DNA of 64,000 nt, from NCBI GenBank assembly GCA_043823195.1, contig JBDRAZ010000102.1:307-64306 (forward strand), read 5' to 3'. Source of the DNA: an archaeon. GTDB lineage: Archaea > Nanobdellota > Nanobdellia > Woesearchaeales > JBDRAZ01. Below, one piece after another: positions 19,923 through 37,493 of the stretch (position 1 is the stretch's first letter; every line of letters starts with the position of its first letter). A program made the position numbers and the translations under genes. The notes beneath the pieces were generated by a model. That model did not search any database and was not told the origin of the DNA. It was given only the letters and a program-made list of their open reading frames with translations.

Positions 19923-20315
19923 TTAAAGCTCCATTGCAAAGCAGGCAATCATCAGGAAGGTCCCTTCCAGAATGAACAGCACGTAGTAGATCGTGTGGGA
20001 AAGCCAGGACAGTGCAAACCAGTCCATTCCGATGCCGAACCGGTTCAGGACCTGGAGGGCTCCTGCTGCAAGGATCAGGAGTGCAATAAGGAAGGATATC
20101 CAGCCGACTGCGTTGCTGTTTGAGATCTCTATCACGCTGTTGATCATGAGGTAGAAGCCTGCGCCTGCTGCTATGTATGCAAAGATCTGCACCGGCATGA
20201 AGGACAGGGCAAATATTGGCGGACCAATGTTGAAGCTGTTCAGGAGCGGCAACACACCTGAAGCAGTAAGAACTAAACCGATAAGGAAACTAATCCAATC
20301 CTTGGTTTCCATCAT
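19923..20315 (-). CDS. Small 4-TM membrane protein (last gene of the orphan cluster)
   Basis: Four hydrophobic segments. The listed start at 20324 is GTG and sits inside the GAGGTG Shine-Dalgarno. ATG at 20315 (MMETKDW...) is 7 nt downstream of it. Confidence 0.6.
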   Translation of the reverse strand: MMETKDWISFLIGLVLTASGVLPLLNSFNIGPPIFALSFMPVQIFAYIAAGAGFYLMINSVIEISNSNAVGWISFLIALLILAAGALQVLNRFGIGMDWFALSWLSHTIYYVLFILEGTFLMIACFAMEL

Positions 20316-20330
20316 AGTAAACACCTCTTT

Positions 20331-34369: not shown

Positions 34370-36435
34370 TATGATCCTCCCTGGGCCCGCAGTTGGGCGA
34401 GACGTGCCTCTAGCTGGTCTTTTTCCTGCTGCTTCCATCGCTTCTCTATTGCGTATTGCGTAGCGTCTAACTCCTGCTGCTTTGCGGCGATCTGCTGCTG
34501 CAGCAGCTGGACCTGGTTCTGTATGTTCTGCCGGGTCGGTGCAACTATAGGCTGAGCTGGCTGAGCAGGCGCGGGCTGTCCGGGTGCCTGCTGTACTCCC
34601 TGCCCAACAACCGGCTGCAGCGCTGCCTGTGCTTGGGCGATGCCGGCCTGCGTCTGCGCAAGCTGCTGCTCCAGTTCCGCAAGCTCCTGATCCTCCAATC
34701 CCGTGAAGAGGTTGATGTCTTCCATACGCTTGGCGAACTCAAATGACTTGCGCTGGATGTTCATTATGCGCTGAGTAACGGGCTTTGTCACATGCTCATA
34801 CAGCGGGTTTGTGTTGTCTCCGTATGCGTGCTTCTGGATATCGCTGAGGTGGAGCTTATCAGCAATAATCTCAACAACTTCATTCTCGAGCACGAGTGCT
34901 GAGGTATGGTGTGTTGGATTATTAATAACCTGTTCAATAAGGCCGTTGAAGTCCTCTCCCTTGAGGTTCTTAAGCCCGATTCCCGGATGGGCCTGCACTG
35001 CCTGGGCAATCGCTGCCTCAATCCCCTGCCTTTCCTCTGTCATCACCGCTGTTCCGTGGGCAGTAAATGTCCCAAGCGCATTTGCATTCTGCTCGTCAAT
35101 GGATACGGCATTTTTGTCGGCTTTCTTCCACTTCGAGATTTTTTCACGCAACTCTTTAGCCCATTTTTTTGGCCATAGGGCAAGGAGCAGGCTGCCCAGT
35201 ACCTTCTTTTGGCCAGCCGGATCATTCAGGCGCTTCTTGTATTCGCCGATTATGCCCTTGTCCTCCTGCCACTGGTCAATGAGCCAGCCGCCGACCATCC
35301 CAACCAGGAAATACCAGAAGAAGTTGGGGTCGTCGCCGGTTATCAGGGCCTTGAGGGATTCTGCAATGGCGTAAGCAAGGCCGCCCGCAAGCATGGGGTG
35401 CTTGCCGCCGCCAAGGGAGTCCTTGAACTTGAAGTAAAGGGTGAAGAGCAGCACATAGTAGCCGTATGTTATGACCTGGTCATAGGTTGTCCCCTGGTTT
35501 ATGAGCATTGCAGCGATGTAACCAGGTATGAAGTAGTTGAGATTGAATATCCCGGAGCCTGACCCGCCGAACCCGCCGCCTCCGCTGAAGTCAACCTTGG
35601 TGAACTTGAACACCAGGAATAGGATTATGAATGCCATGAAGAAGGCAGCAAGGTTGTGCTTGTGCAGGATGCCGAAACGGTACTTGTCATCCCACTGCGA
35701 TACATCCTTTACCGGGGGCAGGACGCCCGCCATGCGCTCATTGTAGGCAATAAAGTCAGATGCGTGCGCCCTCGAATCCTGATAATTCTTATCGCCGGGC
35801 ATATACATGCCGTAATGGCCGCCGGAAATGGATTCCGACATCCTCGCGCCAAGCAGGAACTGCTCAATCCGGTAGAAGCTTCCGCGGTCCCAGACATAGA
35901 CATTCTCGCTGCAGGTATCGCCTGTTGGAACATGGATCCCGTGGGCAAAGACAACGCCGAGGATCAGGGCGACAATCCATATTGCGTAGCGCATGTTGTC
36001 GCTGCCGCCGGAATTGCTGCCCAGGTTCTTCAGCCCGAACTCATATATCAGGACAAAGAAAAACCCGATCACAAATGCATTAACCAGGGGCTTTACTGTG
36101 AAGCCCGGGCAGAGGAAGAGCCACTGTATCCTTGCACCCTCCCAGATATAGTCATGAGGATTCTTTGACAGCGCAATGGTAACTGCAACGGCCAGCCCGA
36201 ACATCACCAGGTATGCAAAGTACTGCTGTCCCCCGCTGAACTTGTCCTTGAGGAAGAAAAGGCCCAGCATAAACAGTACAGCAAATACTGCAAGATAGCT
36301 TACAACGCGCTCTTTTGATATGTAGTTGGACCTGGCCTCGCTTACCGTGGTCCTGAAGTCCAGGGCCTCGGCAGCAGAGCCGGCTATGACTAGCAAAGCC
36401 AGAATTGCCATGATCCAGACTAGCCTGTTCTTCAT
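34369..36435 (-). CDS. Large polytopic membrane protein with cytoplasmic P/Q-rich linker and C-terminal coiled coil
   Basis: The start at ATG 36435 (MKNRLVWIMAILALLVIAGSAAEA...) gives an ATGA overlap with the ATPase stop. There are more than 10 hydrophobic segments. The C-terminus reads '...QQAPGQPAPAQPAQPIVAP...QLLQQQIAAKQQELD...'. Confidence 0.6.
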   Translation of the reverse strand: MKNRLVWIMAILALLVIAGSAAEALDFRTTVSEARSNYISKERVVSYLAVFAVLFMLGLFFLKDKFSGGQQYFAYLVMFGLAVAVTIALSKNPHDYIWEGARIQWLFLCPGFTVKPLVNAFVIGFFFVLIYEFGLKNLGSNSGGSDNMRYAIWIVALILGVVFAHGIHVPTGDTCSENVYVWDRGSFYRIEQFLLGARMSESISGGHYGMYMPGDKNYQDSRAHASDFIAYNERMAGVLPPVKDVSQWDDKYRFGILHKHNLAAFFMAFIILFLVFKFTKVDFSGGGGFGGSGSGIFNLNYFIPGYIAAMLINQGTTYDQVITYGYYVLLFTLYFKFKDSLGGGKHPMLAGGLAYAIAESLKALITGDDPNFFWYFLVGMVGGWLIDQWQEDKGIIGEYKKRLNDPAGQKKVLGSLLLALWPKKWAKELREKISKWKKADKNAVSIDEQNANALGTFTAHGTAVMTEERQGIEAAIAQAVQAHPGIGLKNLKGEDFNGLIEQVINNPTHHTSALVLENEVVEIIADKLHLSDIQKHAYGDNTNPLYEHVTKPVTQRIMNIQRKSFEFAKRMEDINLFTGLEDQELAELEQQLAQTQAGIAQAQAALQPVVGQGVQQAPGQPAPAQPAQPIVAPTRQNIQNQVQLLQQQIAAKQQELDATQYAIEKRWKQQEKDQLEARLAQLRAQGGS

Positions 36436-37493
36436 GCCGGCACCTTCAGCGTCGTAATATTTGCCCTTACCCAACGGGCAAGGATCGGATCTGCAAACCT
36501 GAATTTTCCATCAATCCTCACCACAAGGTCAACGGACATCAGGCGCTCCAGCAGGCTCTTGGTAACAGGGGCGCTGCGGAAGACCTTTCGTGAAATTTCG
36601 GTAAGAGTGAGCCCCTCGAACCTTGAGAGGACATTGAGAATGGATTTCAGGAGGCCCTGGCCGCGGGCGTGCGATAGTGATGCAAGATAAATCTCTGAGA
36701 AATGCCTATAGAGCTTTGAATCGGTATCAAGGAGCTCATCAAGGAGTGCCTTCTGAACATTTTTTTCGGATTTTAATGCGTCACACAACGCAGCAATTAC
36801 AAACGGGTTTGAGGACAATTCTGTAATCTGCTGCCTTGTCTTTGCATCAGCCTTCCCAAGCTTTGATTCGATGAGTGATGCTGCCTCATCCTTGTCCAGG
36901 CCTTCGATTTTTTGAACCTGGAAATACTGCTTCAGCATTTTCTCAGACTCGGAGACAAGGCTTGATGTTACAACATATTTCACACCCGAATTGAAATTCA
37001 TGAGCTTCAGAAAATCGCCGACCTGGGAATAGTTGTTGAGGTCAAACAGATTCTCAAAGTCATCTATAACCATCAGCACTTTCCTGTCCAGCAGGCCGGG
37101 GAAGCCGAAAGCCTGGCGAAGGATGAGATTCTGGTCAGGCTTGATCTTCTGCAGCTCGTTTGCAATGGTGTCCAAAGCCTGGGCTGCAGGAGATGTCAAT
37201 CTGCTTTTCAGCGAGAGGAGAAAGCCCAGATCAAGATAGCTTGCGTAGTCGCCCTTATAGAACGAGTAAAGGGTGTTGCCGATGACTTCAATTGCAAGAT
37301 TCTCTGGCGAGATGCTCAGTCTGTCACCGGCAACATATACGGGTACCTCTCTTTCCCCGGATCGTGAGATAATCTGCCGGAGCAGCCACGTCTTCCCTAT
37401 CCTTCGACTACCCAGTATGGCGACGTGGCCCTTTTTCAGAAGCAATTCTATTTCCGACAGATATCTCAAGGCTGGCCCCTTTTTTGCATGCAT
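36432..37493 (-). CDS. Arch_ATPase-family (PF01637-like) AAA ATPase with C-terminal winged helix
   Basis: Walker A 'ILGSRRIGKTWLL', Walker B 'LMVIDDFENL'. C-terminal 'LTLTEISRKVFRSAPVTKSLLERLMSVDLV' wHTH. Confidence 0.75.
   Translation of the reverse strand: MHAKKGPALRYLSEIELLLKKGHVAILGSRRIGKTWLLRQIISRSGEREVPVYVAGDRLSISPENLAIEVIGNTLYSFYKGDYASYLDLGFLLSLKSRLTSPAAQALDTIANELQKIKPDQNLILRQAFGFPGLLDRKVLMVIDDFENLFDLNNYSQVGDFLKLMNFNSGVKYVVTSSLVSESEKMLKQYFQVQKIEGLDKDEAASLIESKLGKADAKTRQQITELSSNPFVIAALCDALKSEKNVQKALLDELLDTDSKLYRHFSEIYLASLSHARGQGLLKSILNVLSRFEGLTLTEISRKVFRSAPVTKSLLERLMSVDLVVRIDGKFRFADPILARWVRANITTLKVPA

Follow-up and report, generated by a model that had tools for sequence, protein, structure and literature searches.

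A Woesearchaeota-specific gene cluster combining a switch-type ATPase, a palindrome array and predicted envelope proteins

Introduction

ATP switches joined to a DNA-binding domain are known from several described systems. The regulators MalT of E. coli and IniR of mycobacteria, both of the STAND type (signal transduction ATPases with numerous domains), have this architecture and lie beside envelope-related genes; IniR, an SSO1545-like ATPase, regulates the adjacent iniBAC envelope operon (PMC5760070). The PF01637 ATPases SSO1545 (2FNA) and PAB2304 (2QEN) are built from a P-loop domain, a helical domain and a winged helix. An AAA+ module plus a winged helix-turn-helix (wHTH) is also found in Orc1/Cdc6, with its origin recognition box (ORB) repeats, and in Mc-pRIP of Methanococcales, with dyad sites beside the gene (PMC4009838). 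On the envelope side, the putative arCOG01314 secretion system, likewise described computationally, unites an AAA+ ATPase with membrane-anchored or secreted immunoglobulin (Ig)-like proteins (PMC5898192), and an attachment organelle embedded in the envelope was seen by cryo-electron tomography in Nanobdellota, a related DPANN group (PMC11420986). Here we analyse a 64-kb stretch of DNA from Woesearchaeota (DPANN), hereafter the window, in which an ATPase with a winged helix, g1, heads a run of 14 genes predicted to encode cytoplasmic, membrane and exported proteins.

Few uncultured archaea are as widespread as Woesearchaeota, whose genes mostly lack annotation. Castelle et al. defined a module of 51 mostly uncharacterised families common to Woesearchaeota and Pacearchaeota (PMC8204110), to which the families described here may belong, and lineage-specific archaeal hypothetical proteins are enriched in transmembrane segments and signal peptides (PMC9258230). 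An initial annotation of the window proposed that the 14 genes form an undescribed trans-envelope apparatus. We find by sequence comparison that five of them, g1 to g5, belong to a conserved, undescribed and lineage-specific cluster. The run would thus be the local version of a Woesearchaeota-specific, vertically inherited cluster, organised in two, perhaps three, transcription units.

Results

Gene set and junctions

The 14 open reading frames (ORFs), labelled g1 to g14 in transcription order, lie at 19923-37493. All are on the minus strand, as initially annotated and as reproduced here from the ORF listing and a script. All topologies given below derive from hydropathy and charge (positive-inside rule), a heuristic; the evidence for each feature is in brackets.

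37494..37660, unstranded: candidate promoter/operator region of g1, five palindromes interleaved with three TATA-like boxes.
36432..37493, minus: g1, 353 aa, predicted AAA+ switch-type ATPase with winged helix (Pfam, AlphaFold2, Foldseek, alignment).
34369..36435, minus: g2, 688 aa, signal peptide, polytopic with ~6-10 transmembrane segments, P2 family (hydropathy, profile of relatives).
33077..34369, minus: g3, 430 aa, soluble, basic, helical, P4 family (profile, hhalign).
32677..33076, unstranded: inter-operon spacer with AT-rich core (composition, repeat search).
32167..32676, minus: g4, 169 aa, MarR-type wHTH plus ~100-aa C-terminal domain (Pfam MarR_2, homologues).
30754..32166, minus: g5, 470 aa, signal peptide, module of four transmembrane segments, ~310-aa C-terminal domain (hydropathy, homologues).
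30164..30757, minus: g6, 197 aa, signal peptide, one transmembrane segment (76-99), basic cytoplasmic tail, bitopic (hydropathy).
29184..30167, minus: g7, 327 aa, soluble, charged, His-rich, helical, orphan (hydropathy, library scans).
28300..29124, minus: g8, ~274 aa (300 aa from GTG 29202), single transmembrane segment with N-terminus inside, acidic beta-rich domain predicted outside (hydropathy).
25799..28303, minus: g9, 834 aa, signal peptide (AYA/QV cleavage), 16 Cys, C-terminal amphipathic helix (hydropathy, phmmer).
24480..25802, minus: g10, 440 aa, signal peptide, beta-rich, C-terminal coiled-coil-like helix of ~45 aa (hydropathy).
23635..24483, minus: g11, 282 aa, signal peptide, Ig-like module, C-terminal helix (sub-threshold Pfam, hydropathy).
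21380..23638, minus: g12, 752 aa, signal peptide, ~200-aa outside domain, transmembrane segment 220-239, ~510-aa cytoplasmic helical domain (hydropathy, Pfam).
20331..21335, minus: g13, 334 aa, soluble, helical, cluster membership uncertain (hydropathy).
19923..20324, minus: g14, ~130 aa, four transmembrane segments, cluster membership uncertain (hydropathy, one homologue).

The tight packing of these genes, on which the apparatus idea was built, is real. The ATGA overlaps quoted at 36432-36435, 30754-30757, 30164-30167, 28300-28303, 25799-25802, 24480-24483 and 23635-23638, the TAATG at 34367-34371 and the abutting stop and start at 32167/32166 are all exact on the minus strand. From g4 to g12 there are eight consecutive junctions of 0 to -4 nt, plus two overlaps of -19 nt. 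The start codons chosen initially (g2, ATG 36435, 688 aa; g3, 34369; g9, ATG 28303, 834 aa; g8, 29124) turned out to be the best choices: ATG 34369 of g3 is preceded by a GGGAGG ribosome-binding site and gives 430 aa, and g8 probably starts at TTG 29124, preceded by AAAGGTGGG, which gives 274 aa.

The spacer at 32677-33076 had been described as the only break in the run. The spacer is there, but it is not alone, as a second gap of 44 bp precedes g13. In it are a TATA-like box, TTTAAATA, and a ribosome-binding site, GAGGT, and g13-g14 are therefore probably a separate transcription unit.

Codon scoring gave all 14 ORFs 0.15-0.24 log-likelihood per codon in frame, as compared to 0.19 +/- 0.03 for the housekeeping genes of the window, and negative values out of frame. 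With such native in-frame codon usage, the 14 ORFs are real genes and were not recently imported. BLAST among their products detected neither paralogy nor a common domain, and scans of the window for tRNAs and Rfam families had no match.

The topology classes assigned by eye are supported by hydropathy and the positive-inside rule, which are not a dedicated predictor: three polytopic, three bitopic, three exported and three soluble helical proteins, one ATPase with a wHTH and one small wHTH protein. Seven proteins (g2, g5, g6, g9, g10, g11 and g12) start with an n-h-c Sec-type signal peptide that closes with an AxA-type site. None of the N-termini shows the FlaFind-type pattern, so that the reported lack of class III signal peptides holds. 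Searches of the 14 proteins against Pfam, NCBIfam, PHROGs and PADLOC returned almost nothing, with P-loop and wHTH fragments in NCBIfam, PHROGs and PADLOC. As first noted, the recognisable modules are few and weak: AAA_14/NB-ARC/ATPase_2/wHTH in g1, MarR_2 in g4, SdrD_B/CarboxypepD_reg in g11 and OmpA in g12. Neither capsid nor integrase genes, nor a terminase, were found in the Pfam and PHROGs scans. The view that no described system matches this composition also stands, since Pfam, NCBIfam, PHROGs, PADLOC and PDB sequences gave no match and literature searches found no description of the cluster.

Conservation of the cluster core in Woesearchaeota

About 85 homologues of g1 were found, with 24-45% identity, and all those with a lineage name belong to Woesearchaeota or 'Nanoarchaeota'. 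From nine of them we inspected ten separate contigs and one duplicate locus: L081 (JACOUX010000041.1), L082 and L083 (Ga0364475_13356345, the same locus from two samples), L084 (JACPJQ010000005.1, repeated in L085), and L090 to L095, among them L091 (SRR22387949_157335) and L095 (k141_1146718). A single layout is common to all of them. An AT-rich intergenic region of ~300 bp with the palindrome array is followed by the ATPase gene and then by families that we define by their gene coordinates in these loci: the polytopic P2 (250-440 aa, or 860-1250 aa when fused to an extra domain, P3), and the soluble P4 (~500-670 aa) and P5 (~550-915 aa). Junctions within this first unit mostly overlap by a few bases. 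In six contigs (L082, L090, L091, L092, L093 and L094), a MarR-like protein of 168-172 aa comes next, after a gap of 73-285 bp. Past the MarR-like gene, where the sequence continues, are signal-peptide proteins with a module of four transmembrane segments.

The first five genes of the window fit into this layout. A profile hidden Markov model (HMM) of the relatives places g2 in P2 (E 2.7e-25), and g3 is a P4 member according to both an HMM (E 6e-10, residues 187-345 in a 453-aa numbering) and hhalign (65%, E 5.8e-5). g4 is 38-49% identical to the MarR-like proteins that occupy its position in six relatives (E 1e-29 to 1e-41), and the four-segment module of g5 recurs in five (L082, L090, L091 with two copies, L093 and L095; E 1e-13 to 1e-23). 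This module also aligned with the N-terminus of P2/g2 (hhalign, 81%, E 1.2e-5), a score of the kind that comparisons of transmembrane regions inflate; the two may be related. In L095, whose ATPase is 36% identical, a g5-like gene directly follows P5, with no g4 in between, which therefore suggests that the two units are functionally linked.

The initial annotation had made its proposal depend on synteny in related genomes, and the core does recur, in order, in other Woesearchaeota. The order ATPase-P2-P4-P5 is kept across lineages whose ATPases are 36-48% identical. Counterparts of the triad singled out at first, the ATPase with the 688-aa and 430-aa proteins, occur in order as ATPase, P2 and P4 in all ten contigs. 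Recurrence of the 11-gene operon as a whole could be followed in part: g4-type and g5-type genes recur, in six and five contigs respectively, and conservation is shown for g1-g5 only. In the window, L082 and L093, the cluster is preceded by L35Ae; L084, L091 and L092 have a different set of flanking genes in common. These shared flanks indicate that the locus is chromosomal and vertically inherited within sub-lineages.

Neither the 14 proteins nor a six-frame translation of the window yielded a match to P3 or P5; hence, the local cluster appears to be a reduced variant. P5 (for example L081 15934-18621, with counterparts in L082, L084 and L090-L095) has about 29 invariant, mostly charged residues, in stretches such as NEWD..RDDLRDGRYH and GFDYGPR, and has a domain in common with the P3 C-terminus. 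From these alignments it looks enzyme-like, and the invariant residues look catalytic. Neither a Pfam nor a PDB relative of P5 was found. Profiles of P4 and P5 gave only apolipoprotein-like amphipathic-helix noise against PDB sequences, and hhalign comparisons of these two families and P3 with every other cluster protein recovered the match of g3 to P4 only.

The components evolve at different rates. In pairs of genomes with ATPases of 72-75% identity and g4 proteins of 75-76%, P2-P5 are 24-41% identical, a tempo that points to diversifying selection or weak constraint. This fast divergence of the partners accounts for the outcome of direct searches. A word-indexed search with g2 in 5.8 billion proteins found only g2 itself among the candidates listed and was probably blunted by its Gln-rich tail, its relatives coming to light only with profiles of the neighbours of g1 homologues, and an exhaustive phmmer search with g9 against 1.84 billion representative proteins found only g9 itself.

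None of g1-g13 was found within 10 kb of aIF5A in 80 relatives. With one genome per species, the aIF5A relatives of the window belong only to metagenome-assembled genomes (MAGs) of Woesearchaeota/Nanoarchaeia (65-82% identity). Some MAGs titled 'uncultured Methanosarcinales archaeon' show the Woesearchaeota-type aIF5A-M50 synteny, and one of them, CAYXTQ01 (L012/L094), also has the cluster; these titles are probably wrong.

The g1 ATPase

An AlphaFold2 model of g1 was computed from a 72-sequence alignment (predicted local distance difference test score, pLDDT, 94.4; predicted template modelling score, pTM, 0.91). It is tripartite, with a nucleotide-binding domain, a helical domain and a winged helix. 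The best Foldseek matches of this model in the PDB are 2QEN and 2FNA (E 1.2e-9, TM-score ~0.6), followed by subunits of the origin recognition complex (ORC) and Cdc6, plant and animal nucleotide-binding leucine-rich repeat proteins (NLRs), Avs3, MalT (8bob) and RuvB. FtsK/HerA, VirB4, VirB11/FlaI and PilT-type ATPases are all missing from the 50 best matches. In addition, Pfam and NCBIfam gave nothing beyond P-loop fragments for the motor families of secretion systems, pili and archaella. The initial statement that no FlaI, VirB11, VirB4 or HerA-type ATPase is encoded was thus borne out by Pfam, NCBIfam and the 50 best fold matches.

Against Pfam PF01637, g1 scores 18.3 bits, under the gathering threshold of 33.2 bits. 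The profile of the g1 family reaches the 2FNA sequence at 1e-9, and many g1 homologues carry a precomputed PF01637 match; for these reasons we regard g1 as a divergent relative of PF01637 rather than a clean member. No match was obtained with the Orc1/Cdc6 models TIGR02928 and Cdc6_C (Pfam at E <= 0.1, NCBIfam at E <= 0.01).

The Walker A (GSRRIGKT) and Walker B (LMVIDDFE) motifs of g1 match the patterns GxxxxGK[ST] and hhhhD[DE]. In the family, the Walker A Lys is replaced by Arg in 16 of 72 sequences, and the residue after the Walker B Asp is Asn in 50 of 72. Judged from the alignment, such degenerate motifs would fit better with a slow switch than with a motor. The recognition helix of the winged helix, R306-K312, is the best-conserved segment of g1: R306, S307, P309, V310, T311 and K312 are each conserved in at least 93% of the 72 family sequences, which are otherwise ~36% identical.

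Overall, the model indicates that g1 is a minimal ORC/STAND-like switch module without a sensor domain. This switch-type fold and the missing sensor argue against g1 as a trans-envelope motor. As conservation peaks in the DNA-recognition helix, g1 probably regulates its own operon and does not drive secretion.

A palindrome array upstream of g1

Five 16-bp palindromes of the form TATRCCA-NN-TGGYATA are positioned upstream of g1, at 37496, 37512, 37555, 37611 and 37627 (span 37496-37642). Three TATA-like boxes lie between them (37528-37544, 37590-37606 and 37640-37656), and the palindrome nearest g1 ends 2 nt before its ATG. The window contains six such palindromes, as against 0.49 expected, and five of the six are upstream of g1. 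A repeat search of this upstream region returned the repeat families D1-D3.

The array is conserved, with TATACCA-NN-TGGTATA as its common form. In every relative, the ~180 bp ahead of the ATPase gene hold two to five palindrome matches with at most two mismatches, and in all lineages the last one stands 2-12 nt before the start codon. As a control, 1.1 Mb of other Woesearchaeal DNA contained two matches with at most one mismatch.

In most relatives, genes for a 45-49-aa ribbon-helix-helix (RHH)-like protein and a weakly hydrophobic protein of ~230-300 aa are divergent from the ATPase gene, alternating in several loci. These sets of RHH-like and ~290-aa genes share the palindrome-bearing intergenic region in most relatives:

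L081, 5958-7931: divergent RHH-like gene set.
L082, 6211-9694: divergent RHH-like gene set.
L084, 6407-8428: divergent RHH-like gene set.
L090, 1-958: divergent RHH-like gene set.
L091, 8007-9036: divergent RHH-like gene set.
L092, 8147-9152: divergent RHH-like gene set.
L093, 2220-4016: divergent RHH-like gene set.

RHH-like genes are absent from the window and from L095, and the palindromes are kept in both. No DNA binder other than the ATPase wHTH thus occurs with the array in every case. From this co-conservation we infer that g1 binds the array, with TATACCAATTGGTATA as candidate operator, and regulates its own operon.

The spacer and the second unit

The core of the spacer (32677-32950, 274 bp) has 16% G+C; nowhere else in the window does a 200-bp stretch fall below 30% G+C. 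Within the whole spacer (32677-33076), runs of oligo-T probably terminate transcription of g1-g3, and a TATA-like box stands ~25-35 nt before g4. The upstream edge of the AT-rich tract carries an inverted repeat, ATATTGGCAACAT/ATTTTGCCAATAT, at 32968-33007. The tract at 32677-32950 is longer than a promoter and a terminator would need. Six relatives have a comparable gap, of 73-285 bp, ahead of their g4 homologue.

Residues 4-56 of g4 match MarR_2 (28.1 bits, cut-off 27 bits), and its C-terminal ~100 aa have no match. With its homologues at the same position, g4 is, on sequence grounds, the conserved head of a second operon. A metagenome scan was also run with an unspecific pattern from the g4 alignment; among the matches listed were four generic wHTH loci (L086-L089).

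The genes downstream of g4 and the first-unit gene g2 contribute most of the predicted envelope proteins. The C-terminus of g2 is basic, Gln-rich and helical and probably cytoplasmic, according to hydropathy and charge. The ~310-aa C-terminal domain of g5 is predicted to lie outside the cell, whether the signal peptide is cleaved or not, and the g5 homologue of L082 has SdrD_B/SpaA Ig domains. For g6 and g12, the part predicted outside is either short or ~200 aa, in addition to a basic cytoplasmic part; g6 has no family match in Pfam or NCBIfam. The predicted exported proteins g9, g10 and g11 each end in a charged amphipathic helix of 30-45 aa, with an IN..GKL motif common to those of g9 and g11. 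g3, g7 and g13 are predicted to be cytoplasmic.

Two proteins may carry outside modules of known kinds. Several Ig-like matches of g11 (SdrD_B, CarboxypepD_reg) are mutually consistent and all under threshold. In g12, residues ~68-135 carry the OmpA-like motif DG..tYN..LS.kRA..V (VDGEDTYNKELSKKRAKKV). The Pfam OmpA match has an E-value of 3.9e-4 and 21.2 bits, against a cut-off of 27.2 bits, and the three best PDB sequence matches are all OmpA C-domains, at E ~0.25. The same stretch is matched by the ZorB/MotB model of PADLOC. A single-sequence AlphaFold2 model of the g12 outside domain reached a pLDDT of 30.

N-X-S/T sequons are entirely lacking in g2, g8, g9 and g10, where composition predicts ~9.4, as compared to 53 observed and 56 expected in the other genes of the window (uncorrected for multiple looks). 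This lack may reflect avoidance of N-glycosylation.

The two last genes stand somewhat apart. A 51%-identical homologue of g14 lies beside aIF5A-M50 in L024, a contig of 4.8 kb on which none of g1-g12 was detected. It belongs there to a gene pair (2209-3577) for a helical protein of ~330 aa (329 aa) and a protein of ~120-130 aa with four transmembrane segments, comparable to 19923-21335 in the window. g13 is marginally similar to the 329-aa protein of L024 and to the product of the last visible cluster gene of L095 (20447-21163).

Neighbouring genes in the window

The flanks of the cluster encode aIF5A, an M50 protease, L35Ae and a RIO/Bud32-type kinase. Further along, a two-gene module is duplicated (38896-43266 and 44489-48553), each copy consisting of a phosphofructokinase followed by an orphan of ~900-990 aa; the phosphofructokinases are 30% identical and the orphans 23% over 600 aa. 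Three paralogues of ~295-317 aa, 31-36% identical, are located at 43263-44207 (minus), 49223-50176 (minus) and 51918-52802 (plus), and that at 49223-50176 has an N-terminal MazE/AbrB-type domain. A glycan and envelope biosynthesis region, 168-14327, comprises three GDSL-lipase paralogues, four GT4 glycosyltransferases, a PMT_2-type transferase and a radical-SAM enzyme. A protein with an SLT lytic-transglycosylase domain is encoded at 7839-8726 (minus; E 4e-32), which agrees with the murein-directed proteins described from Woesearchaeota (PMC8204110).

Discussion

What the cluster may do

The reading that we favour, tentatively and with less than even confidence, is that the cluster is a regulated and rapidly diversifying envelope or surface module for contact with partner cells or substrates. 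In the first unit (g1-g3), the winged helix of the ATP switch g1 would bind the palindromes over its own TATA box and transcription start and thereby exert autoregulation, while the polytopic g2 and the cytoplasmic helical g3 would act as membrane-proximal partners of g1 or as its signal input. This logic may be likened to that of MalT and IniR, which couple an ATP switch to the state of the envelope or of transport. In the second unit (g4-g12), the MarR-type regulator g4 would head a set reaching from the cytoplasm to the cell surface. Its parts would be g5 as an anchor with an outside domain, the bitopic g6, g8 and g12, and the exported g9-g11, with Ig-like and OmpA-like outside modules.

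The trans-envelope apparatus of the initial annotation therefore survives in part. A coherent, translationally coupled set of cytoplasmic, membrane and exported orphans is present; the role of g1 as energiser of a machine does not hold, given the switch fold, the conserved wHTH and the operator array of its own. The comparisons establish how the genes are arranged and coupled, that g1-g5 are conserved in synteny and the operator array with them, the fold class to which g1 belongs, and the unequal rates of regulators and partners. Association of the products, their topologies, DNA binding by g1 and a role in attachment are inferred, and it is possible that the cluster products form a physical complex spanning the envelope. 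A more specific proposal goes further and looks doubtful to us: an undescribed, Woesearchaeota-wide partner-contact assembly that spans the envelope, with OmpA-like and Ig-like parts outside, fast-evolving components that set partner specificity, and an ATP switch on the palindrome array with P2/P4 as sensor. Extracellular proteins that bind or degrade murein occur in Woesearchaeota and have been interpreted as indicating contact with bacteria (PMC8204110). Speculatively, an OmpA-like outside module would fit such a picture of contact with a bacterial wall.

Several points weigh against a surface module. The Ig-like and OmpA-like matches are below curated thresholds, and DNA binding by g1 is deduced from co-conservation. 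A motif search upstream of the g4 homologues for a common operator did no better than shuffled sequences. In our comparisons five of the 14 proteins appear conserved, and g9 is a strict orphan. P5, found in all relatives, is missing here, and the local cluster may be reduced or partly disabled. The fastest-evolving partners include the cytoplasmic P4 and P5, which selection on surface proteins leaves unexplained. Finally, the clusters of L081 and L084 are found among toxin-antitoxin and abortive infection (Abi) genes, which gives them the flavour of a defence island.

Alternative explanations

This last point leads to the possibility of a conflict or defence system, in which the STAND-like ATPase would sense infection or control expression and the fast partners would be effectors or decoys, with a membrane attack of the abortive-infection type. 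The g1 fold resembles the STAND modules of NLR, Avs and MalT proteins, the partners diverge two to three times faster than the regulators, HEPN/MNT, PIN and AbiEii genes flank the cluster in L081 and L084, and there are weak P-loop matches to candidate PADLOC systems and to the DS8 anti-phage model. However, the matches in PADLOC-DB 2.0 are limited to P-loop and wHTH stretches (E 1e-6 to 1e-2), and g1 has neither a sensor repeat domain nor a fused effector. The locus keeps a vertically inherited position beside housekeeping genes and is unusually large for such a system (8-17 kb, 5-12 genes), and three Sec-exported proteins and putative Ig-like and OmpA-like outside modules would be atypical of defence. 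We consider a defence role unlikely.

It is similarly unlikely that the run encodes no single machine at all and consists of packed lineage-specific genes in several small operons, with g1 and g4 as local regulators and g6-g12 as unrelated, strain-specific surface proteins. Start/stop overlaps are indeed common in the compact genomes of DPANN archaea. Conservation shown for g1-g5 only, the lack of relatives of g9, the promoter-like box of g13-g14 and their counterpart in a different context, and the lack of paralogy or a common domain at the BLAST level would all be expected in this case. Such a loose assembly is nevertheless difficult to reconcile with the unbroken series of 0 to -4 nt junctions and -19 nt overlaps in g4-g12, with an ATPase-P2-P4-P5 order that persists at 36-48% ATPase identity, with a g5 family always right after the first unit, and with the C-terminal helices common to three exported proteins.

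A secretion, pilus or attachment machine energised by g1 as its motor is very unlikely. In its favour, the coupled operons combine proteins of the cytoplasm, the membrane and the exterior, every lineage has the ATPase gene in translational coupling with that of a polytopic protein, and DPANN attachment organelles of unknown protein make-up exist (PMC11420986). But g1 shows no similarity to the FlaI/VirB11, VirB4, HerA/FtsK and MoxR ATPases, carries a highly conserved DNA-binding wHTH with an operator array upstream of its own gene, and has degenerate Walker motifs in many family members. Neither class III signal peptides nor a polytopic platform protein of the TadC/FlaJ type (no T2SSF/FlaJ match) were detected.

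The palindromes could instead be ORB-like sites or iterons of an origin or partition element, with g1 as a divergent Orc1/Cdc6-like initiator or DNA anchor and the AT-rich tract as the place of unwinding. ORC and Cdc6 are among the best fold matches of g1, five dyad sites adjoin its gene, the only tract under 30% G+C in the window is 4.5 kb away, and RHH genes lie beside the array in most relatives. PF01637/Cdc6-like putative initiators stand beside predicted origins of Methanococcales (PMC4009838). The cumulative GC skew also has its minimum at 36-38 kb, and at 38.8 kb the genes switch from the minus strand (~9.8-38.7 kb) to the plus strand (38.9 kb onward). Yet the skew tracks the gene strand, being positive over the plus-strand genes at 4-8 kb, for instance, and is not independent evidence; the relatives have no strand switch at the locus. 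We rank the origin reading low for these two reasons and hold it to be highly improbable. In addition, g1 matches neither TIGR02928 nor Cdc6_C and has no ParA-type Walker motif, its gene is coupled to those of membrane proteins, and the last palindrome has a repressor-like position, 2-12 nt before the start codon, in every lineage.

Finally, we reject a remnant of an integrated virus or mobile element encoding membrane and spike-like proteins, for which the many orphans, AAA+ ATPase and small wHTH proteins, all typical of archaeal proviruses, and three weak matches to PHROG families of unknown function could be invoked, as the window has no hallmark genes (neither integrase, capsid, terminase nor tRNA/att repeats), g2 had no tblastn match in phage and archaeal-virus records, a scan with the best-conserved motif did not find the g1 family in 2.9 million IMG/VR contigs, the genes have native codon usage and several lineages keep the locus at the same place in the chromosome.

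Implications

An apparent run of orphans can now be described as a conserved cluster with families for the ATPase, P2-P5, g4 and g5 and with an exact operator sequence. The predicted pair of g1 and its operator is testable in vitro, without a culture. If the surface assembly is true, its genes would be the first candidates for DPANN cell-cell contact beyond pili. Should the cluster turn out to be a conflict system or an element linked to an origin, its conserved combination of an ATP switch with an operator would still be new for archaea. More generally, 'no homologue in billions of proteins' can mask a conserved system when the partners evolve two to three times faster than their regulator.

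Comparison with known systems

The cluster could in principle encode a structure of the same kind as the Nanobdellota attachment organelle, but that organelle belongs to Nanobdellales, a different order, has no gene assigned to it, and nothing links the cluster to it. The markers of the arCOG01314 system, MoxR/GvpN, vWA, DUF4350 (pfam14258) and pfam07760, are all absent from the 14 proteins (Pfam, E <= 0.1). Unlike Orc1/Cdc6, whose family models it does not match, g1 belongs to an operon with membrane proteins, its sites lie over the promoter and start, and its relatives lack a strand or skew signal. As compared to MalT and IniR, g1 has no tetratricopeptide repeat or MalT domain III sensor, its winged helix is not a LuxR-type helix-turn-helix and its gene is coupled to those of membrane proteins. 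We do not claim membership of the MalT or IniR families, because g1 is without their sensor and LuxR-type domains. The closest in architecture are SSO1545 and PAB2304, which share the P-loop, helical and winged-helix domains with g1. For these two proteins, function, operator and any link to a membrane operon are undescribed, whereas g1 comes with both a palindrome array and membrane protein genes.

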